Positions 47,106 through 56,787 of a stretch of 57,938 nucleotides of DNA are shown one piece after another. A program made the position numbers and the translations under genes. The DNA is taken from contig CAVQUB010000028.1 of the NCBI GenBank assembly GCA_963716725.1, positions 1-57,938 on the forward strand, given 5' to 3'. The first letter of the stretch is position 1, and every line of letters begins with the position of its first letter. The stretch is from an uncultured delta proteobacterium (GTDB lineage Bacteria > Myxococcota_A > Polyangia > Polyangiales > Polyangiaceae). The notes under the pieces are model-generated. The model saw only the letters and a list, made by a program, of their open reading frames with translations. It was not told the origin of the DNA and ran no database searches.

Positions 47106-50100
47106 CTAGACGGCCGCGGCCGGCTCCTCCTTGGGCAGATCGCGCGCCTTCCACAGCGCGAAGAGGGCGGGGTACACCAGGAGCTCGATCAAGAACGAAG
47201 TGACCAAGCCGCCCACCATCGGGGCGGTGATGCGCTTCATCACGTCCGATCCGGTCCCGGTGCTCCACATGATCGGCACCAGGCCGATCATCGTGGTGAG
47301 CACCGTCATCAACTTGGGTCGGATGCGCTGAGCCGCGCCCTCCACGATCGTGTCCTGCAGGTCGCTGAAGGTCTTCAGCTGGCCGGACTCCTGGCGCCGC
47401 TTATGAGCGATCTTCAGGTAGAGCAGCATCACCACGCCCGTCTCGGCGTCGAGTCCCGCCAGGGCGATCAGCCCCACCCAGACCGCGACGGACATGTGGT
47501 AGTCGAGCAGATAGAGCAGCCAGATGGCGCCCACCAACGAGAAGGGGACCGCCAGGAGCACCATCGCCGTCTCGACGACCGACTTGGTGTTGAGGTAGAG
47601 CAGGAAGAGGATCATGGCCAGGGTGATCGGGACGATCAGCGTGAGCTTCTCCTTCGCGCGCTCGAAGTACTTGAACTGCCCCGCCCACTCGATACGCTGA
47701 CCGGAGGGGATCTGGACTTCGGCCGCCACGGCCTTCCTGGCGTCCGCGACGTACTCGGCGATGGGCCGATCGCTGATGTCGACGAAGACGAAGCCGACGA
47801 GCTTGCCGCTCTCGCTGCGCAGCATGTCGGGCCCGGTCGTGAAATCGAGCTTGGCGACCTGTGAGAGCGGGATCTGCGCGCCCGATGGCGTCGCGACCAG
47901 CACGTTCTTCATGGTCTCGGGGGTGTCGCGGAACTCGCGGGCGTAGCGCACGTTGATCGGGTAGCGCTCGCGGCCCTCGACTGTCTCGCTGATGTTCATG
48001 CCGCCGATGCTCGACATGATCACGTCGTTCACGTCCTGAACCAGCAGCCCGTGCCGCGCGGCTTCGGCGCGGTCCACGCTGAAGTCGGCGAAGAATCCGC
48101 CGGCGGCGCGCTCGGCGTAGGCGCTGCGGGTCCCCGGCACCTTGGCGACGGCCTTCTCGATGGCCACCGCCGTCTTTTCGATGCCCTGCACGCTGTCGCC
48201 GATAGACCTTGATGCCGAGCTGGCTGCGAATACCGGTCGCCAGCATCTCGGTGCGAGTCTGGATCGGCATCCACCAGGCGTTGGGCATGCCCGGGTACTG
48301 GAGCGTTGCATCCATCTCCTTGACCAGGCCCTCCCAGGTCAGGCCCGGGCGCCACTGATCCTTGGGCTTGAGCAGGATGACGATCTCGGCCATCGACAGG
48401 GGGGCCGGATCGGTCGGCGTGTCGGCGCGCCCCGCCTTGCCGAAGACGGTCACGACCTCGGGGAAGGTCTTGAGCTGACGGTCCATCGACTGCAGCACCT
48501 TCACGGCTTCGGACTCGCTCATCCCAGGCGGAGAGGTGGGCATGTACAAGATCGAGCCCTCGTTCAGCGGGGGCATGAACTCGCTCTGAAGGCGCATGTA
48601 CGCCGGGATCGTGAAGATGATGCCGAGCAGGGCGGCGACGATCATCGTGCGGCGGTAGCGCACGACGAGCCGCACCACCGGCGAGTACAGGGCGATCAGC
48701 CAGCGGTTGAGGGGGTTGGCTTCTTCGCCGCGGATCTTGCCGCGGATGAAGATGGCGGCCAGGGCCGGTGTCAGCGTGATGGCCAGGATGGCCGCGAAGC
48801 CCATCGAGTAGGTCTTGGTGAACGCCAGCGGCTTGAAGAGCCGCCCCTCGGTGGCCTCCAGCGTGAACACGGGCATGAACGAGACCGTGATCATCAAGAG
48901 CGAGAAGAAGATGCTGGGCCCGACCTCTTGCATCGCCTCGACGATCACATTGACCCGGTCGCCGGGTTTGCCCTCGGCCTGCCAGTGCTCCAGCTTCTTG
49001 TGGATGTTCTCGATCAGGATGATCGACGCGTCCACCATGGCGCCCAGGGCCACGGCGATGCCGCCCAGGGACATGATGTTGATGGTCAGCCCTTGGTAGT
49101 ACATTGGGATGAACGCCAGCAGCACTCCGAGCGGCAGCGTCAAAACCGGGATCAGCGCGCTCCGGACGTGCAACAGGAAGAGGAAGATGATCAGGCTGAC
49201 CACCACCATCTCCTCGATCAAGGTGTGCTTCAGCGTCTTGATCGACGCTTCAATCAGCTCCGAGCGGTCGTAGGTGACGACCAGCTTCACGCCTGGGGGC
49301 AAGGCCGATTCGAGCTCTTTCAGCCGGTGTTTGACCCGCGCGATCACGTCCAGGGCGTTCTCGCCGTAGCGCATCACGACGATGCCACCGACGGCCTCTC
49401 CTTTCCCGTCGAGGTCGGCGACTCCGCGCCGCATGTCGGGCCCCAGTGACACCTCGCCCACGTCGCGCACGTAGACCGGCGCGCCGTCCGGGCGCACCTT
49501 GAGCGGGATGAGTTCGAGGTCCTCCTTCTTCTTCACGTAGCCGCGGCCCCGCACCATCTGCTCGGTGCCCGCGATCTCGATCACGCGGCCTCCAACGTCT
49601 TGGTTCGAGGCGCGCACTCGGCGGATCACCTCCGAGACGCTGACGCCCTGGCTGCGCAGTTTGTTGGGGTCGAGATTGACCTGGTACTGCTTGATGTAGC
49701 CCCCCACGGAGGCGACCTCGGCCACCCCCGGAACGGCCTCGAGCGAGTAGCGCAGGGTCCAGTCTTGCAAGCTGCGCAGCTCGGAGAGGTCGTGCTTTCC
49801 GGTCTCGTCGACGAGCGCGTATTGGAACACCCAGCCCACGCCGGTAGCGTCGGGTCCGATGCTCGGGGTCACGCCCTCGGGCAGCTTGCCCTGGGCGGTG
49901 TTCAGGTACTCGAGCACCCGCGATCGCGCCCAATAGATGTCCGTGCCGTCTTCGAAGATGACGTACACGAACGATCCTCCGAAGAAGGACTGCCCGCGCA
50001 CCGCCTTGACGTTGGGCGCCGAGAGCAGGGTGCTGGAAATCGGGTAGGTGATCTGATCTTCCACCAGGTCGGGGCTTCGACCCGGCCAATCCGTGTAGAT

Positions 50101-50277
50101 GATCACCTGCGCGTCGGAGAGATCCGGGATGGCGTCGAGGGGCCCGTGCCTCATGCCGTAGACACCCCAGAGCGACATGGCCGCCACGAAGATCAGGGTC
50201 ATGTACCTGTTCTTCGCGCACCACGCGATCACCCGTCCGACGACGCCGGAGCTTTCAGCCGAGCTCACGCCGCTCAT
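47106..50277 (-). CDS. cusA: CusA-type heavy-metal efflux RND permease (Cu/Ag); 1-bp frameshift at about 48202
   Basis: DAIPDLSD, VEDQITYP, GPDATGVGW; Met triad equivalents ILYMP, APLSM and RTEML; LDAETGVVM, RIRPKLMT. The C-terminal part is in ORF 47106-48311. Confidence 0.9.
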
Positions 50278-52076
50278 CACCACATCTCCGTGGCGCTCTT
50301 CAGTCGGCTGTCGGCGGCGATCAGGAAGTTGCCGCTGGTCACCACGCGCTCACCCGCCTTCAGGCCGTCGAGCACCTCGAAGTAGTCGGCCGATCGGATT
50401 CCGACCTTGATCTCGCGGGGCTTCAGCCGATCGTTGCCGACGTCCACGAAGACGATGCGGCGCGGTCCCGAGTAGATCACCGCGGAGTCCGGCACCACCA
50501 ACTTCTCGCCTCGGCTGACGGTCAGCGCGACGTTGGCGTACATGTCGGGCTTGAGCTCGACGTCTTTGTTCGCCAGCTCGATCCGGACCTTGCCGGTGCG
50601 TGTTGCCGGGTCGAGGTAGGGGTAGACGAAGGTGACCTTGCCGGAGAAGTCTCGGTCGGGAAGGTAGGGGAGGGTGACCTTGGCTTCGTGGCCGAGGGGT
50701 ACGAGCGGGATCTCCTCTTCGTACAGCTCGGCCTCGATCCAGACCTTGTCCAAGTTGGCGATGCGCATCAGGCGCATGCCGGGCTCGACGGCCGAGCCGT
50801 CGAAGACGTTCTTTTCGACCACGAAGCCGCTGGCGGGAGAGGAGATGGGAACGTAGCGGACGGGCTTGCCGTCCTTCTCGACTTTGTCGATGGTGCCCTT
50901 CGAGACGTCCCACAGCCTGAGCCGCAGCCGCGCTGCGTCGACCAGCGTATCGGGTCGTCCCGCTCCGCCGTCGATGCCCCGACGGCTGGACAGAGCCAGC
51001 AAGAGCTCCTCCTGAGCGGCGTAGATCTCCGGGCTGTAGACCGTGAACAAGGTCTGTCCGCGGCGCACCTTCTTGCCGGTGGCGTTGGCGACCAGAGTGC
51101 CGATGTAACCCTTGAACTTGATGGTCACCTCGGTGAGGCGCGTCTCGTCGTAGGTGATGCGCCCGACGGTCTTGATCTGGCGCTCCACCGCGCGCTTCTC
51201 GACCAGCGCGGTCTTGACCCCGATCAGCTGCCGGCGTGCCGCATCGACCCGCACGGTCCCGGTCGCGAGCTCTTCCTTGGTGACGGCCACCAGGTCCATG
51301 CCGCAGATCGGGCACTTGCCCTGCGTCGGCTGCTTGACCGACGGGTGCATGGGACAGGTGTAGTGGGCGACTTCGCCGGGAGCAGCGTCCGCGGCGGCGT
51401 GCGCTGCGTGTTCGCCCGGCGGCTCGACCCAGGTGCTCTCCGATCCGCAGGTGAGCATCTTCTTGCCCATGTACGGGTTTTCGAGCCGTTCTCCCCGTTG
51501 AAGCCACTTGTTGAAACCCGACACCATTGGGCACTCGAAGATGCGACGCTCTTTGGCCAGGCGTTGATCGGCCGCGACGATCGACACGATGGACTCGCTC
51601 AGATCGCCGAAACGCTTGCGGCCGTCGTCGAGGCTCTCGGCCTTGGCTAGCCCTTTCGCCTCGCTCGATCCGGCTTGGAAGCGCTGCTTCACCTCGAGGG
51701 GCGCTTGCTCGAGGCCGGAGTGCGCGGCGGCGAGGGCCGCGGCGAGGCGCTGACTCGAAGCGGCGACGCCTTCGAGCGTGTCTTGCACCAGCGAGGTTCG
51801 GATCTCCTCGTAGGCGTCGAGCGCGGTGCGGACCGAGGCCAGAACCGGTTCGGGGAACTGCTGTTCGGGCAGCGGCGGCAGCCTCGGCTGACCGGGCTTG
51901 CCGGCCGCCGGACTGGCTGCGCTGCTCGTCGCGTGGGGCGCTACCGGCGAAGAACCGCCGGACTTCGGCGAGAACCAGGCCACGATGGGCCGGCGGAAGA
52001 CGAGCCCGAGGATCACGGCGACGACCAAGGCCAGCGCCGGGAGCAGCTTGTATTTGTGGCGATCCAAGGCGCTCAT
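50277..52076 (-). CDS. cusB: CusB-type RND periplasmic adaptor with DUF3347-like and heavy-metal-binding domains
   Basis: FECPM..WLQ..NPYMG..ML.CG, YTCPMHP..CPICGMDL, YSPE, LKPDMYA, VVTSGNFLI. Confidence 0.88.
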   Translation of the reverse strand: MSALDRHKYKLLPALALVVAVILGLVFRRPIVAWFSPKSGGSSPVAPHATSSAASPAAGKPGQPRLPPLPEQQFPEPVLASVRTALDAYEEIRTSLVQDTLEGVAASSQRLAAALAAAHSGLEQAPLEVKQRFQAGSSEAKGLAKAESLDDGRKRFGDLSESIVSIVAADQRLAKERRIFECPMVSGFNKWLQRGERLENPYMGKKMLTCGSESTWVEPPGEHAAHAAADAAPGEVAHYTCPMHPSVKQPTQGKCPICGMDLVAVTKEELATGTVRVDAARRQLIGVKTALVEKRAVERQIKTVGRITYDETRLTEVTIKFKGYIGTLVANATGKKVRRGQTLFTVYSPEIYAAQEELLLALSSRRGIDGGAGRPDTLVDAARLRLRLWDVSKGTIDKVEKDGKPVRYVPISSPASGFVVEKNVFDGSAVEPGMRLMRIANLDKVWIEAELYEEEIPLVPLGHEAKVTLPYLPDRDFSGKVTFVYPYLDPATRTGKVRIELANKDVELKPDMYANVALTVSRGEKLVVPDSAVIYSGPRRIVFVDVGNDRLKPREIKVGIRSADYFEVLDGLKAGERVVTSGNFLIAADSRLKSATEMW

Positions 52077-53500
52077 CGGGCGCCTCCTTTCCGGGATCCG
52101 AGCGGGAAGCGGCCCTGGGATCGGTCGAGGCGTGCGCGTCGCTTCGAGAGCTCGGCGGCGGCGGCGTGACGCGCGAGCTGCACGTTGCGCAGGCTCTTCT
52201 CTGCCGAGATCACCGTGGCGAAGTTGGTGTTGCCGGCGCCGAAGTCGGCTCTGGCCGCCGCGACCTGGCTCCGGGCGGTGGGGATCAGTCGACTGTCGTA
52301 CAGCGTTACCACCTGGATGGCCTCGACGACCCGCCTGCGATCGACCTCGACGCGCGCGCGGATCCTGTCGGTCACGCTCTTTGCGTCGTGATCGAGCTCG
52401 GCCGCCATGGCGCTGGCTTCGTCCACCATGCCCGCGCGACTGCCACGTTGGACCGGGATGGGCGCCTCGAAGCCGAGCATGAACTGGTGCTCGATCTCCG
52501 CGAACATGGAGCTGTAGCTCGCCATCAAGGTCACGTCCGGGTAGTACTGGCGTTCGGCGTAGCGGATGCGGGCCTGAGCTGCCCGTGACTTCGCGGCCAG
52601 CTTCTTGAGCTCCGGGCTCGACGCCACTGCCCGACGTTGGAGATCGACGCTCGCGGGCGGAATGCTCAGCACGACGCCGAGGTCGGCGGGCGGAGCGGGT
52701 AGCGGGCGCTGGGGTGGCCGGTGCAAGAGCGCGTTCAGCTGCGTCACCACGATGTCCCTCCGGGAAGCCAAGCCGAGATCTTGCTCCTCGAGCATGGCGA
52801 TCTCGAGCTCGGCTTGGAGCGGATCCGAGAGCGAGGCGCGGCCGACGGAGTACTGAATTTCAGCGCTGCGTTTCAGCTCGCCGAGCAGGTTCCGGTGCTC
52901 GGAGTTCACCTCGGCGGAGCGATCGACGAGCCAATACTCGTCGTAGAGCAGCGAGGCCTCGAGGGCGAGATCCAGCTCGGTCAGCTCGAGCTCGTGCCCG
53001 CTGGCGGCGGCCGCGCGCTCCTCGGCTTCCGACGCATTGGCGAGCTTTCCAGGCCAGGGGAAGCGCTGGCTCAGGCGAACGGTCTGGCCAAAGCGCATCT
53101 TCGAGACGACGCTGAGGGGCGCGATCTCGTAGCCGAGCATCGGGTCGTCGAGGGAGTCGACCTGTCGCCCCTTGCTGCGCGCAGCTCGCCAGGCCGCCCG
53201 TCGAGCGTCGATGTCCGGGTTCTTGGCGAGGACCTCGCGGATGACGAGCCCGCGATCCAGTCCGGCACCGGCGACCGTGCCCGGCGCGGTGGCGGGGCGC
53301 TCTTCGGAGATCGCAACCGCCCGCGCACCGGGCGTGGGCTGAGCGCCCGAGACCGTGAGGCTCCCAGGCTCGCTTTCGTTGCCGGCGCGGGCCTCGGCCG
53401 CGGGTCGGGCCGGCACGCAAGCGGCGCTGAGGGCGAGAAGCAGGGCGCTGGGCGTGAGCCAGCGTCGGGGAGCGAGCAGATGGAACGATGGAACGAACAT
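52073..53500 (-). CDS. TolC/CusC-family outer-membrane efflux lipoprotein
   Basis: Lipobox SAAC, NPD, SQRFPWPGK, SPEL, YYPD; directly upstream of cusB and cusA. Confidence 0.85.
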   Translation of the reverse strand: MFVPSFHLLAPRRWLTPSALLLALSAACVPARPAAEARAGNESEPGSLTVSGAQPTPGARAVAISEERPATAPGTVAGAGLDRGLVIREVLAKNPDIDARRAAWRAARSKGRQVDSLDDPMLGYEIAPLSVVSKMRFGQTVRLSQRFPWPGKLANASEAEERAAAASGHELELTELDLALEASLLYDEYWLVDRSAEVNSEHRNLLGELKRSAEIQYSVGRASLSDPLQAELEIAMLEEQDLGLASRRDIVVTQLNALLHRPPQRPLPAPPADLGVVLSIPPASVDLQRRAVASSPELKKLAAKSRAAQARIRYAERQYYPDVTLMASYSSMFAEIEHQFMLGFEAPIPVQRGSRAGMVDEASAMAAELDHDAKSVTDRIRARVEVDRRRVVEAIQVVTLYDSRLIPTARSQVAAARADFGAGNTNFATVISAEKSLRNVQLARHAAAAELSKRRARLDRSQGRFPLGSRKGGAR

Positions 53501-53504
53501 GAAA

Positions 53505-53604
53505 AACCTCTCCGCGTCACAGCGACGAGCGCGCCGAATCGACGGCGCTCGCCAGCCCAGCGCGACGCACCAGTGCGCAGCGCCCGAGCGAGACGGGGGA
53601 GGTT
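53505..53604 (-). promoter_or_regulatory. Structured intergenic RNA in which an anti-SD pairs with the TolC/CusC Shine-Dalgarno
   Basis: AACCTCCCCCGTC (53604-53592, starting in the leader stop codon) is complementary to GACGCGGAGAGGTT (53518-53505); two internal hairpins lie between them. Confidence 0.55.
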
Positions 53605-54005
53605 CAGATCAAAATCGCGCAGTTGCGCAGGAAGATCGGTGGACCCAGCGGTGGCGGACCGCGGGCACGGGGGGCGAAGGTCTTGCTCTCGGCCAGCGCC
53701 CACTCGATGCGCACGATGGCAGGCAGGAGTTCGAGCAGGACCGCCGGCGGCACGTCGGAGGCCGCTCCAGCCTGAACCGCCGACGCTTTCTCCGCGTGGC
53801 TCGTGACGTCCTTGCAGCAGGCGGCGCGATCGATGGCGGGCGTCTTGCAGTGCGCGGACTCGGGTTCGCTGTGCTGGCAGCAGCAGGCCTTGCCGGCACG
53901 TCCGCCCATGTTGCAGAGGCTGAGCACGCGGGCGAACGCCGTGACCGGGACCAGGAGGCCCGCCACCAACGTGATCACCAGGACGTGCAAGCGCAGCTGC
54001 TTCAA
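53604..54005 (-). CDS. Cys-rich exported leader protein with RGPP motif, upstream of cusCBA
   Basis: Signal peptide ending AFA; C..CCC..C..CC; RARGPPPLGPPIFLRNCAILI*. Start placed at TTG 54005 (TACACT 9 nt upstream); ATG 54062 is the alternative. Confidence 0.7.
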   Translation of the reverse strand: MKQLRLHVLVITLVAGLLVPVTAFARVLSLCNMGGRAGKACCCQHSEPESAHCKTPAIDRAACCKDVTSHAEKASAVQAGAASDVPPAVLLELLPAIVRIEWALAESKTFAPRARGPPPLGPPIFLRNCAILI

Positions 54006-54070
54006 TGCAAGGCCAGTGTAGCTGCCGCGCCCTGCGCTGTCACCCGGCGGCGGGAGGGGCATTTCAGGCC

Positions 54071-55429
54071 TCAGTTCGCCGGACCGCTGGCGGTGCCGCC
54101 ACCCTCGAGCTTGTTGCCGCCGTAGGGCTTCACCTTCGGCAGGGGCCCCCAGACCTTTTGATAGAGCGCCTTCATCTCGGCCAGCTTCTCGGGCTGGGTC
54201 TTGGCGAGGTTCTTGGTCTCTCCGGGATCGCTCTTCAGGTCGTAGAGGTCGAAGCGCCAGTCGTTGCCGAAGACCAGCAGCTTGTAGTCACCGCTGATCA
54301 GCGCCCGGCGCTCGGGGTTGTTGCTGTCGGCGGGCAGGTCGAGCAACACCGGTCGGTCCTTGGGTGCCGCGCCGCCGAGCTCGGCCACCAGGGACTCGCC
54401 GACGAAGTCGTTGGAGGCTTTGACGCCCATCAGCTCGACGATGGTCGGAGCGAAGTCGATGCTGGATCGCGGCGACTCGATGCGGCGCGCCTGGATGTTG
54501 GGCCCGCAGAACATCAGCGGGACGTGCACCAGCATTTCCCAGAGCTCGAAGGCGTGCCGGTACATGTTGTGCTCGCCGAAGGCTTCGCCGTGATCGGCGC
54601 TCACGATCACCACGGTCTTGTCCCACCACGACTGCTTCTTCATGTGGTCGAGCAGCTTGCCGATCCACAGATCGGTGTAGAACACCTCGGAGTCGTATTT
54701 GTCCCGGACCTTCTTGCCGAAGACCGGCGTGTCCTTGTGCTGGTGGTAGACGTCGTGCGGGTCCATGTAGTGCAGGTACATGAAGAAGGGTTTGTCCTTC
54801 GGCGCGGCCTCGAGCTGCTGGATGGCCAGCGGCGTCACCTTGTGGCTGGTGACGTGGTTGTCGGTCTGCGCGTCAAAAGAGAGCCCGTCCACGATGCGCC
54901 AGTCCGCGAAGCCTTGATCCATGCCGTTGTGGCCCTTGCGCATGTACATATGAGCGTGCGTGCTCATGGTGTGCGCGCCGGCCGCGCTGAGCAGCTCGGG
55001 AAAGAACAGGTTGCTCTCCGAGTACTTGGTGAAGAAATAGCCGCTGCGTTTGAGCGTGCTCGGGTACTTGCCCGAGAGCGCAGCCGCGACGCTCTTCGCG
55101 GTGTAGCTGGAGGTGGAGTAGCCCCGCGTGTAGCTGGCGCAGGACTTCTCCAGAGCCGCCAGGTTCGGGGCGATGTCCCGCGGGTAGCCGCTCCACGGCA
55201 TGTCGGCGCGCAGGCTGTCGACCAGCAGGAGGACCACGTTGAAGGGTCCCTGCTTCGGCGCGGGTGCAGGCGCTGGGGTCGCCGTGGTGGCAGGCGGTGC
55301 GGGCGCGGCGCCGGTCTCTGCTGGCGCGGCGCCGGTCGGCGTCGGCGGCGGCAAAGGCGCCGGCTCGACGGGAGGCGACGCACCGGCGCAACCCGCGACC
55401 AGCGCGGCGGTCCACAGCAAGGTCCTCAC
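54071..55429 (-). CDS. Sulfatase-like (alkaline phosphatase superfamily) lipoprotein
   Basis: NVVLLLVDSLRAD, SSYTAKS, HYMDPH, SADHGEAFGEH, HVPL, LYDLKSDPGE. Confidence 0.88.
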   Translation of the reverse strand: MRTLLWTAALVAGCAGASPPVEPAPLPPPTPTGAAPAETGAAPAPPATTATPAPAPAPKQGPFNVVLLLVDSLRADMPWSGYPRDIAPNLAALEKSCASYTRGYSTSSYTAKSVAAALSGKYPSTLKRSGYFFTKYSESNLFFPELLSAAGAHTMSTHAHMYMRKGHNGMDQGFADWRIVDGLSFDAQTDNHVTSHKVTPLAIQQLEAAPKDKPFFMYLHYMDPHDVYHQHKDTPVFGKKVRDKYDSEVFYTDLWIGKLLDHMKKQSWWDKTVVIVSADHGEAFGEHNMYRHAFELWEMLVHVPLMFCGPNIQARRIESPRSSIDFAPTIVELMGVKASNDFVGESLVAELGGAAPKDRPVLLDLPADSNNPERRALISGDYKLLVFGNDWRFDLYDLKSDPGETKNLAKTQPEKLAEMKALYQKVWGPLPKVKPYGGNKLEGGGTASGPAN

Positions 55430-56787
55430 GGCTTCTTCTCCACGGGGCCGGTCGGGCCCTTGGCGCTGCCGCCTTCCTTCAGCTTCATGCCGCCGTAGGG
55501 TTCGACGAAGCCGATCTTGCCGAACTTCTCGGCGAAAACCAGCTTCATCTCGGCGAGCTTCTCGGGCTCGGCACGGCTGAGTTCCGTCTTCTCACCGGGA
55601 TCGTTCTTCAGGTTGAACAGCAGGTGCTTGGACCCGCGGCCCCAGACCGTCAGCTTGTAGTCGCCACTGATCACGGCGCGCCGCGGCGGGTTGTGGCTGT
55701 CCTCGGCCAGTTCGACGGCGATGGGCTCGCGACTCTCGGCTTCACCGCCCGCGAGCTCGGGCTTCAGGCTCTTGCCCTGAAACTGCTCGAGGGGCTTCTC
55801 TCCCAAGAGCTCCATGATCGTGGGCGCGAGATCGATCAGCGAGCGACGGGCGTCGATGCGTCGTGGCTTGGTGTCCGGAAGCTTCACGATCAGCGGAACC
55901 CGGACCAGCACCTGCCAGACGTCGAAGGCATGTTTCCAGGCGCCGTTCTCGCCGAAGGCCTCGCCGTGGTCCGACGTGATGATCAGCGCGGTGTCCTTCC
56001 ACCAGGGCTGGCCCTTGCACCAGTCCAGCAGCTTGCCGAGCCACAGATCCGTGTGGAAGACCTCGGCGTCATAGCGGTCGCGGTTCTTGTTGCCGAAGTC
56101 CGGCGCGTCGGAGTGCTTCTTGTACTCGTCGTGCGGGTCCATGAAGTGGGTCCACGCAAAGAAACGCTTGCCGGTGTTTTCCGGCTTGCCCAGGATTTCC
56201 ATCGCGAGGTTGACGGTCTTCTCACTGGTGATGTGCTCGTCGGTGTTCGGGTTGAAGGTGATGCCCGGCACCAGCTCCCACACGTCGAAGCCCTGGTCGA
56301 GGCCCTTGCCGCGACCCAGGTACATGTGGGCTTGCCAGGCCAAGGTCCGGATCCCCTTCTCTTGGAGCACCTCGGGGAAGAAGGTGTTCGCCTTGGCGTA
56401 GCTCGTGAAAAACCACCCTGCTCGATACAGCGTGGCGGCGTAGCGCCCCGTCATGTACGTGGCGACGCTCTGCGCCGTGTAGCTCGATGGCGAGTAGGCC
56501 TCGGTGTAGACGATGCTCTCGTCGACGAGCTTGGTCAGGTTCGGCGCGATCTTCCGCTCGTACCCGGTCCAGGGCATGTCCGCGCGCAGGCTGTCGACAG
56601 TCAACAGCAGCACGTTCAGTGGCCTCGGCTCGGGGGCTGCCGCGGGCGGAGCGGAGGCTGAGGCGGCGGGGGCAGCCGCGCTCGGCGCCGCTGCTGGACT
56701 CGGGCTCGACGCGCTCGGCGCGGGAGGCTCGGATTTCGAGCAGGTGACGGCGGAAAAGGCCAGAAGGAGCGTTGCGAGCTTGCGCAC
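55426..56787 (-). CDS. Sulfatase-like lipoprotein, tandem paralog
   Basis: NVLLLTVDSLRAD, SSYTAQS, HFMDPH, TSDHGEAFGE, LFNLKNDPGE; GTGA overlap. Confidence 0.88.
   Translation of the reverse strand: MRKLATLLLAFSAVTCSKSEPPAPSASSPSPAAAPSAAAPAASASAPPAAAPEPRPLNVLLLTVDSLRADMPWTGYERKIAPNLTKLVDESIVYTEAYSPSSYTAQSVATYMTGRYAATLYRAGWFFTSYAKANTFFPEVLQEKGIRTLAWQAHMYLGRGKGLDQGFDVWELVPGITFNPNTDEHITSEKTVNLAMEILGKPENTGKRFFAWTHFMDPHDEYKKHSDAPDFGNKNRDRYDAEVFHTDLWLGKLLDWCKGQPWWKDTALIITSDHGEAFGENGAWKHAFDVWQVLVRVPLIVKLPDTKPRRIDARRSLIDLAPTIMELLGEKPLEQFQGKSLKPELAGGEAESREPIAVELAEDSHNPPRRAVISGDYKLTVWGRGSKHLLFNLKNDPGEKTELSRAEPEKLAEMKLVFAEKFGKIGFVEPYGGMKLKEGGSAKGPTGPVEKKP

Follow-up and report, generated by a model that had tools for sequence, protein, structure and literature searches.

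We describe a locus in an uncultured delta proteobacterium (Polyangiaceae, Myxococcota_A) at which the ribosome-binding site (RBS) of a cusC-like efflux gene is predicted to be closed by a long-range RNA helix centred on the stop codon of a small upstream leader open reading frame (ORF), and at which this helix lies beyond the computed reach of a ribosome arrested at the leader's own RGPP motif. The locus is on the minus strand of a 57,938-nt stretch of contig CAVQUB010000028.1 (assembly GCA_963716725.1, positions 1 to 57,938), hereafter the window, and all features given below are on that strand; 'cus' is a working label for the pump genes and not a metal assignment. The leader ORF (53604..54005) encodes a putative 133-aa protein whose C-terminus reads ...RARGPPPLGPPIFLRNCAILI, followed by UGA (53604..53606). 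It contains the arrest-type motif RGPP (53652..53663; arrest property from PMC12992588) and, after it, a conserved 15-codon tail, PLGPPIFLRNCAILI (53607..53651), and a spacer of 103 nt separates the stop from the cusC start codon (AUG at 53500). The reading that we favour is arrest-gated translational coupling, in which the pump would be translated only once a ribosome has passed the stall motif and reached the leader stop; we give it a little less than an even chance.

Closing helix at the leader stop codon

In the minimum-energy fold and the pair-probability map, positions 53605–53592 pair with 53518–53504 through 13 pairs, comprising seven outer pairs, a C/A mismatch (53598/53511) and six inner pairs with a bulged C (53514). 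The 5′ arm (53592..53605) is the anti-Shine–Dalgarno (anti-SD) or anti-RBS strand, while the 3′ arm (53504..53518) contains the SD sequence GGAGAGG (53513–53507), in which a single A is left unpaired. One of the outer seven pairs is a G.U, formed with the G of the UGA. The first-pass annotation of this DNA, made from the letters alone, had claimed that an anti-SD overlapping the leader stop could close the cusC RBS through 12 pairs with one mismatch and one bulge; the helix was recovered with these features plus the G.U pair in the minimum-energy folds of both a 111-nt and a 181-nt stretch, and the SD, whose state in the favoured fold had been set as a check, is paired. The two enclosed hairpins described at the same time are also present in these folds (about 53555..53590 and about 53523..53554). 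The three-way junction that they were said to form holds for this locus and its near relatives but is not general, the helix enclosing 1–3 hairpins in homologous loci.

The fold of the 111-nt stretch, with the helix and both hairpins, has a minimum energy of −59.0 kcal/mol (z = −2.73), with 0/200 shuffles as stable, and that of the 181-nt stretch, with the same elements, has −83.4 kcal/mol (z = −1.91), with 6/200 shuffles as stable. In the pair-probability map of this locus, stop positions +1 to +14 pair with the RBS window at 0.4–1.0. Accessibility was expressed as opening cost, the ensemble free energy needed to unpair positions −18 to +6 of the downstream start, and the effect of a ribosome at the stop as the drop in this cost between RNA that is free from 33 nt before the stop and RNA that is free only from stop+13. 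Masking the stop region at this locus lowers the opening cost by 5.3 kcal/mol, which ranks 2 of 167 among the co-directional junctions of the genome. When the 24 nt after the stop were shuffled, the opening cost averaged 12.1 ± 1.8 kcal/mol vs 16.6 kcal/mol for the native sequence, a value that 0/12 shuffles reached. A related strain, represented by contigs of one DNA run, has 55 differences from the window over 4297 nt; among the best-supported of these, which alone are tabulated, the only one in the 103-nt spacer, U53504C, turns the G53605.U pair into G-C and strengthens the helix.

The helix across homologous loci and controls

The same measure was applied to a family of 34 non-duplicate homologous loci, in 32 of which a downstream start could be set by eye (L022 and L042 had none). 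Mean opening cost fell from 17.0 to 9.8 kcal/mol on masking to stop+13, and the drop was at least 5 kcal/mol in 23/32 loci. A fixed rule, taking the first ATG, GTG or TTG 40–260 nt downstream that opens an ORF of at least 150 codons and has an SD word between −16 and −4, made 30 starts callable, 28 of which coincided with the choice by eye, and gave a drop of at least 5 kcal/mol in 22 of the 30. A held-out set of 24 loci, drawn from other families and classes, was processed by the rule alone. Starts were called in 21, with a mean drop of 6.8 kcal/mol, at least 5 kcal/mol in 11/21 and at least 3 kcal/mol in 16/21; two of these starts (at 56 and 61 nt) appear to be misplaced, with scores near zero, and were retained. 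As background we used 166 other co-directional junctions of the same genome (spacers of 77–195 nt, an SD word, and ORFs filtered by GC content at third codon positions, GC3), for which the mean drop was 0.16 and the median 0.10 kcal/mol, with values of at least 3 kcal/mol in 14 and at least 5 kcal/mol in 1. Under the same rule, a drop of at least 5 kcal/mol is thus found in 33/51 family and held-out loci vs 1/166 background junctions.

Most family loci have a minimum-energy fold in which the SD region is paired with sequence located at the stop or immediately after it; one to three hairpins are enclosed, and the sequences differ between loci. Counted from the first base of the stop, the partner strand of the RBS window extends from −14 to +16 in the family pair-probability map. 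Complementarity was also assessed by swapping arms between loci, using the duplex energy of the first 27 nt from the stop with the last 22 nt before the start: native pairs average −18.05 kcal/mol vs −14.59 kcal/mol for swapped pairs, a native mean that 0/10000 permutations attain. Each of positions +3 to +9 is paired with the RBS window in 23–28 of 53 loci, through 3–6 pair types.

Several results weigh against a helix that is general and specific to each locus. The drop is below 1 kcal/mol in 6/32 family loci. The loci are related, many of those held out coming from one genus (g27, 13/18 genomes of which matched), and the counts therefore overstate independence. Shuffling the 24 nt after the stop still leaves at least six arm-to-arm pairs in 55% of folds; the number of shuffled loci with at least six such pairs averages 17.6 and reaches a maximum of 22 of 32 over 30 replicates, vs 23 in the native set. 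Native opening cost averages 13.6 vs 11.6 kcal/mol after shuffling, a level that 116/384 shuffles reach, and only 21/32 loci lie above their own shuffle mean (Wilcoxon p = 0.0026, loci related). The C/U-rich segment after the stop is therefore a large part of the signal, to which locus-specific complementarity adds. In the family mean the SD core becomes only somewhat more accessible (unpaired probability 0.22 to 0.41), and at this locus the value goes from 0.33 to 0.32 with the first 13 nt masked, because weak local pairings replace the helix; this probability is insensitive in GC-rich RNA, and opening cost was therefore used instead. RNAalifold on a MAFFT alignment of 23 spacers found 0 consensus pairs, and the alignment-free arm-swap test was therefore relied on. 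The covariation that the first-pass annotation had named as a check is not seen in this alignment-based consensus; locus-specific complementarity is indicated by the arm-swap result and by the several pair types per position.

The number of arm-to-arm pairs was rejected as a measure in its own right, as it discriminates poorly, at least six being found in 33% of background junctions as well as in the shuffled folds mentioned above. By eye, the apex of the first hairpin often reads GCRCA-NNGG-UGYGC (53555–53590 at this locus; also L005, L007, L012, L029 and L031). The spacer of L037 contains four segments, GAUCACCACC after the stop pairing with GGUGGUGAUC in mid-spacer and a second GACCACC with the SD GGAGGUGGUC; this arrangement looks like an attenuator-style relay working on the same principle.

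Geometry of the stall site

The RGPP codons occupy 53663–53652, and from the first nucleotide of the P-site proline codon to the stop the distance is 51 nt (51–54 nt in the family), which agrees with the 'about 45 nt' of the first-pass annotation. A ribosome stalled at R[AG]PP would have its leading edge at about −35 from the stop, and one at the second GPP at about −20. When the leading edge was moved along the RNA, opening cost remained at about 17 kcal/mol until the first free nucleotide was at −20, fell to about 10 kcal/mol by +10 and was flat thereafter; at this locus it was 16.7 kcal/mol at −2 and 11.5 kcal/mol at +10. In this model a ribosome arrested at R[AG]PP or at the second GPP cannot open the helix, and the RBS-opening cost falls only for a ribosome that is at the stop or has come within a few codons of it. 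The modelled sequestering strand roughly matches the footprint of a terminating ribosome with the leader stop in its A site. The earlier statement that a ribosome stalled at RGPP leaves the RBS closed is thus borne out computationally as geometry, and the interpretation of which it formed part is partly supported, in its structural and geometric halves and by computation.

A leader family with a fixed motif and tail

A family profile built from 33 members retrieved 2308 cluster representatives at E ≤0.001 (655 at 1e-10) among 1.84 billion proteins. Homologues of the leader occur in 11/41 related genomes, in 43/201 genomes of the same family (29/89 genera) and in 49/401 genomes sampled across the phylum (33/254 genera); a search of genome contigs with the single leader gave 221 pattern matches, 0 of them confirmed, and a tblastn search of plasmids with the leader gave no match. 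The closest library proteins are unnamed or 'hypothetical' and without Pfam domains, and the nearest ESM Atlas clusters are unnamed and from Myxococcota taxa, one of them with PF26622 (DUF8199) in 47% of its members. DUF2946 (PF11162) had 0 matches to the leader at E ≤0.01 and is absent genome-wide at the same threshold, and among 12 homologues it matched 2, with a best E-value of 0.059. By these profile searches, the leaders are a Myxococcota family outside the Pfam DUF2946 model.

The position of the arrest-type motif is strongly constrained. R[AGP]PP is present in 27/34 family loci, with 15–16 residues between motif and stop in 25 of those, and five of the seven loci without it have R-A-G-P, a SecM-type core, at the same place; UGA is kept as the stop (TGA in 33/34 loci). 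Among the best 150 library representatives, RAPP is found in 80 and RGPP in 54 (together 134/150), any such motif in 139, and Leu at −2 in 148. Within the 139 motif-bearing representatives from this set, the tail after the motif is 14–16 residues in 134 and the spacing from CC to Arg is 51–53 residues in 119. Codon usage in the tail was counted in 29 loci, leaving out five distant ones: Leu(−2) is encoded by TTG in 14, CTG in 10, CTC in 4 and CTT in 1, and the conserved Gly and Pro residues are likewise specified by several different codons. The amino acids are kept while synonymous codons vary, a pattern indicating that the tail is conserved as a peptide, a point that the first-pass annotation had missed. 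Distant members keep R-A-G-P in place, with divergent tails.

Several tail codons at this locus (53607–53651) lack a final G or C (cca, ggt, cca, att, ttg); the genes of this genome were here selected at GC3 ≥0.85. A terminator-like hairpin of five pairs at 53629–53616, followed by AUUUUGAUCU, lies within the last leader codons; it was dropped as a candidate conserved element, as homologues are without it by eye. Two loci, L004 (NAPRDGPD...) and L033 (QACAPP...), have lost the R[AG]PP core and kept the tail. The stop-to-RBS helix is kept in L004 (drop of 6.8 kcal/mol) and not in L033 (1.1 kcal/mol), and the pair are natural test cases for the contribution of the arrest.

Comparison with characterised systems

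CutF–cutO of Rhodobacter capsulatus is similar in that a metal-detoxification gene is directly preceded by a small cysteine-containing leader, exported in CutF and apparently so here, which has a proline motif towards its C-terminus (PMC9973294; bioRxiv 10.1101/2025.02.05.636593), and in an intergenic stem that shields the downstream SD and is opened by translation of the leader in cis (PMC9973294). According to the same survey, the genes found most often downstream of CutF-like proteins are OEP (CusC/CzcC-type) genes, and the association between leader and OEP gene is therefore already in print (PMC9973294). In its length, its C-terminal residues and its distance to the next gene, the leader described here agrees with the CutF-like filter of that work (133 aa, the last 15 residues being PLGPPIFLRNCAILI, and cusC 103 nt past the stop). 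In CutF, however, the stall motif is described as C-terminal and the stalled ribosome as melting the stem, copper leading to stalling and stalling to expression (PMC9973294), whereas here the arrest motif is 51–54 nt before the stop with the stalled ribosome computed to be out of reach of the helix, the anti-RBS is centred on the stop and a conserved tail of 14–16 residues follows the motif. The cysteine motifs also differ (CxM/CCC/CC here vs CxxxC in CutF), as does the lack of a DUF2946 match at Pfam thresholds. The spacer comparison of the CutF survey, in the sections of it that we draw on, concerns lengths only (PMC9973294).

CruR (Bp2923), which precedes bfrG in Bordetella pertussis, is likewise the first gene of a copper-related operon with a long structured spacer, and both leaders have a RAPP-type motif at a fixed spacing from a cysteine motif, 45 (± 2) residues in CruR and about 52 here (PMC9426467). 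CruR has a CXXC copper motif and the present leader has none; the RAPP of CruR is three residues from the C-terminus, whereas the motif here is 15–16 residues from the end (15 at this locus). The reported output of CruR is Rho-dependent, with arrest switching an uptake system on and metal switching it off, in contrast to the translational output on an efflux pump predicted here (PMC9426467).

Other RAPP/RGPP peptides (ApdA, ApdP and Streptomyces upstream ORFs) have the same core and are small secretory proteins upstream of regulated genes, some of them copper-related (PMC12992588, PMC10951233). The present leader shares the R-[AG]-P-P core, its apparent nature as a small secretory-type protein and its place upstream of a co-directional gene. 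These peptides differ in stalling near an RBS-masking structure or near the C-terminus, and the parts of the two reports considered here describe no stop-centred anti-RBS past the stall (PMC12992588, PMC10951233). In rpmI–rplT, the downstream RBS is also silenced by sequence that the ribosome of the upstream gene covers, and coupling by RNA unfolding works there across a spacer, i.e. over tens of nucleotides (+52 nt; PMC12548453); similarly, the cusC RBS pairs, by computation, with sequence lying under the leader's terminating ribosome. The rpmI–rplT system is without an arrest peptide or ligand gate as described, and the spacer here is 103 nt, bridged by the enclosed hairpins (PMC12548453). 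CzcI, CusD and SilD are small exported ORFs that, like the present leader, precede the outer-membrane gene of heavy-metal resistance-nodulation-division (RND) operons, CzcI being without a proline motif (PMC9973294).

Proposed mechanism and alternative explanations

Under arrest-gated coupling, the nascent leader would act as an exported, cysteine-rich metal sensor. The ribosome would arrest at R[AG]PP, 51–54 nt before the stop, with the CC motif then about 52 residues from the peptidyl-transferase centre, the helix closed and the pump untranslated. Binding of a soft metal, e.g. Cu(I) or Ag(I), to the nascent chain would release the arrest, whereupon the ribosome would translate the tail, reach the UGA and unwind the anti-RBS, and either a 30S subunit or the terminating ribosome itself could then start on cusC. 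Output would be on with metal, as befits an efflux pump, and its polarity would be opposite to that of CruR, CutF and SecM, in which arrest means on; the opposition to CruR put forward in the first-pass annotation stands as a description of this model and not as a finding. Published precedents exist for parts of the scheme: RAPP and RGPP arrest strongly and depend little on upstream context (PMC12992588), and in CruR copper relieves RAPP arrest and the spacing from Cys to RAPP matters (PMC9426467).

Three considerations nevertheless hold our confidence in this scheme below even. We infer the arrest itself, the binding of metal and the direction in which metal acts, relief of arrest by metal being borrowed from CruR. 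The conserved tail peptide has no role in the scheme, and in exported CutF copper prolongs stalling (PMC9973294; bioRxiv 10.1101/2025.02.05.636593), which here would turn the pump off with metal. The wider proposition, that an inverted-polarity arrest switch (stalled off, efflux switched on by metal release) operates across Myxococcota, with the leader possibly the main metal sensor of the operon, is in our view only slightly less likely; the leader could have that part because a promoter-like element at its start codon suggests a leaderless mRNA.

The tail is given a function if the pause occurs at the stop codon, with the polarity of CutF and SecM. The C-terminal module R[AG]PP, xxGPP, L[FY][ILV]x[NH]C[SA]xLx would then act in the exit tunnel at the UGA, metal sensed by the exported chain would slow termination or the last codons, and the paused ribosome would keep the RBS open, so that stalling means on. 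The conservation of the tail as a peptide despite synonymous variation, its near-constant length and the near-invariant Leu(−2) all fit this explanation, as do the several tail codons at this locus not ending in G or C and the extent of the anti-RBS (−14 to +16), which matches what a ribosome with the UGA in its A site would cover. The characterised relatives all use stalling to switch on, both CutF (PMC9973294; bioRxiv 10.1101/2025.02.05.636593) and CruR (PMC9426467). However, documented arrest at R[AG]PP occurs while the Pro codons of the motif itself are in the P and A sites (PMC12992588); here these lie 51–54 nt before the stop, and a ribosome would first need to be freed from there. Distant members, moreover, keep R-A-G-P in place while their tails diverge. 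To our knowledge the tail contains no known termination-arrest motif, which we also count against a pause at the stop, and on balance we consider such a pause unlikely, though deserving of serious attention.

If instead the helix and the arrest serve separate ends, the helix would merely make cusC initiation depend on translation of the leader, whether to set stoichiometry, to suppress spurious initiation or to stabilise the mRNA, and the arrest would shield the RNA from Rho or trigger cleavage, as in CruR, or serve the export or quality control of a periplasmic metal-binding protein. Helices that sequester an RBS until translation upstream opens them are a general means of coupling (PMC12548453), and CruR does act via Rho (PMC9426467); the leader itself, apparently exported, has conserved cysteines and a structural model with short strands at its cysteine motifs, a model that is nonetheless weak (scores given below). 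Against this division of labour, CruR logic, in which metal releases the arrest and brings about termination, would turn an efflux pump off in metal; nor is the spacer C-rich and open, being instead highly structured. The fixed distance from motif to stop together with a stop-centred anti-RBS would also be an odd coincidence if the two were unrelated. We regard plain coupling as about as unlikely as a pause at the stop.

That the pairing has no dedicated function, GC-rich spacers simply folding, RNA ends pairing and a C/U-rich stretch finding a purine-rich SD, would explain why shuffled 5′ arms so often pair with the SD region, why arm-to-arm pairs are common in background junctions and why the 181-nt fold is so modest an outlier. 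It sits poorly with the rarity of large drops among background junctions compared with the family and held-out loci, with the arm-swap permutations and with the single spacer difference listed for the related strain, which strengthens the helix, and seems to us very unlikely. A riboswitch or protein-binding RNA sensing a metal or regulator directly is hardly credible, the multi-helix junction of this locus and the semi-conserved first-hairpin apex being outweighed by the variable number and sequences of the hairpins, by an alignment (A3) without a conserved junction core and by an Rfam search of 53300–54200 that gave no match at E ≤1.

Relation to previous work and implications

CutF/DUF2946-like leaders have been catalogued, and an SD-shielding stem melted via leader translation is established for cutF–cutO (PMC9973294). 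The fixed, conserved tail of 14–16 residues after an arrest core, and the stop-centred anti-RBS with its consequence that the arrested state would be off, appear to be unpublished, as judged from full-text literature searches and the portions of these sources cited here. The same appears to apply to a Myxococcota family outside DUF2946, although the supplementary lists of PMC9973294 and the figures of PMC12992588 may include members. The modes of action of CutF-like leaders before CusC/CzcC-type genes have been said to 'require further studies' (PMC9973294). For this largest class of CutF-like leaders, the present locus and about 2300 family representatives offer a concrete geometry, in which arrest site, tail, stop and anti-RBS are at fixed distances. 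If the proposed polarity is true, ribosome arrest can be a ligand-released brake and not only a wedge that opens an RBS, and soil and wastewater myxobacteria could induce metal efflux via a nascent-chain sensor alone (a search for sensor kinases or other regulators was not made). If the pause is instead at the stop, the conserved tail would be a new termination-arrest peptide.

Leader protein, operon and locus context

The longest frame of the leader ORF begins at ATG 54062 and would encode 152 aa. A TTG start at 54005 and a 133-aa product are favoured, since a related strain has a 1-nt deletion at 54051, between the two candidate starts; gene callers on library homologues mostly give 133 aa. 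The leader had no match in Pfam or NCBIfam. Its N-terminus (53931..54005) resembles an export signal, with a K/R n-region, a hydrophobic stretch and AFA, and AlphaFold2, run on the sequence from one codon after TTG 54005, models a helix at residues 2–22 (block predicted local distance difference test, pLDDT, 95/89). The AlphaFold2 model with alignment A2 is weak overall (pLDDT 67, predicted template modelling score, pTM, 0.34) and places short strands at the cysteine motifs. These motifs (53814..53915), seen in alignments A1 and A2, are C-x-M, CCC (53885–53877) and CC (53819–53814); five cysteines are invariant among homologues in alignment A2, and M33 also in A1.

Four co-directional minus-strand genes, leader–cusC–cusB–cusA, lie downstream of a sigma-70-like promoter match. 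The cusC-like gene (52073..53500) encodes an outer-membrane efflux protein of the TolC/OEP family (Pfam OEP, 1.9e-30), matches to TolC/NodT subfamilies being below curated cut-offs. It is followed by a cusB/czcB-like adaptor gene (50277..52076) with HMBD and DUF3347 domains and by a CusA/CzcA-family heavy-metal RND gene (47106..50283; TIGR00914, 781.8 bits vs a cut-off of 701). The last gene is frameshifted near 48201, with TIGR00914 profile positions 3–690 in one frame and 689–1044 in the ORF 48311..47106. This break is probably specific to the present record, to judge from the contigs of three DNA runs from three studies (one of them possibly the window's own source), in which the base at 48201 is missing.

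The promoter match (54015..54043; GTGACA, 17 nt, TACACT) is a match to consensus only and ends 9 nt upstream of the leader TTG start; the pattern gave 1 match vs 0.0 expected in shuffles. TAnnnT occurs 6–11 nt upstream of an in-frame leader start in 29/58 homologous loci vs 26/4524 control positions, and the leader mRNA may thus be leaderless, starting with GTG, TTG or ATG. One metatranscriptome run contained a 168-nt contig at 53774–53941, inside the leader ORF, with five differences, which as a contig from an RNA library is not proof of transcription; elsewhere the stretch was without RNA coverage, an absence that carries no information. DNA near-identical to 53300–54200 was present in 20 public runs from eight studies of biofilter, groundwater, wastewater and sediment metagenomes, four of which runs were covered by the comparison with the window sequence. 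Directly upstream on the same strand are two tandem sulfatase-like paralogues of 452 and 453 aa (54071–56787), the first of which ends 9 nt before ATG 54062.

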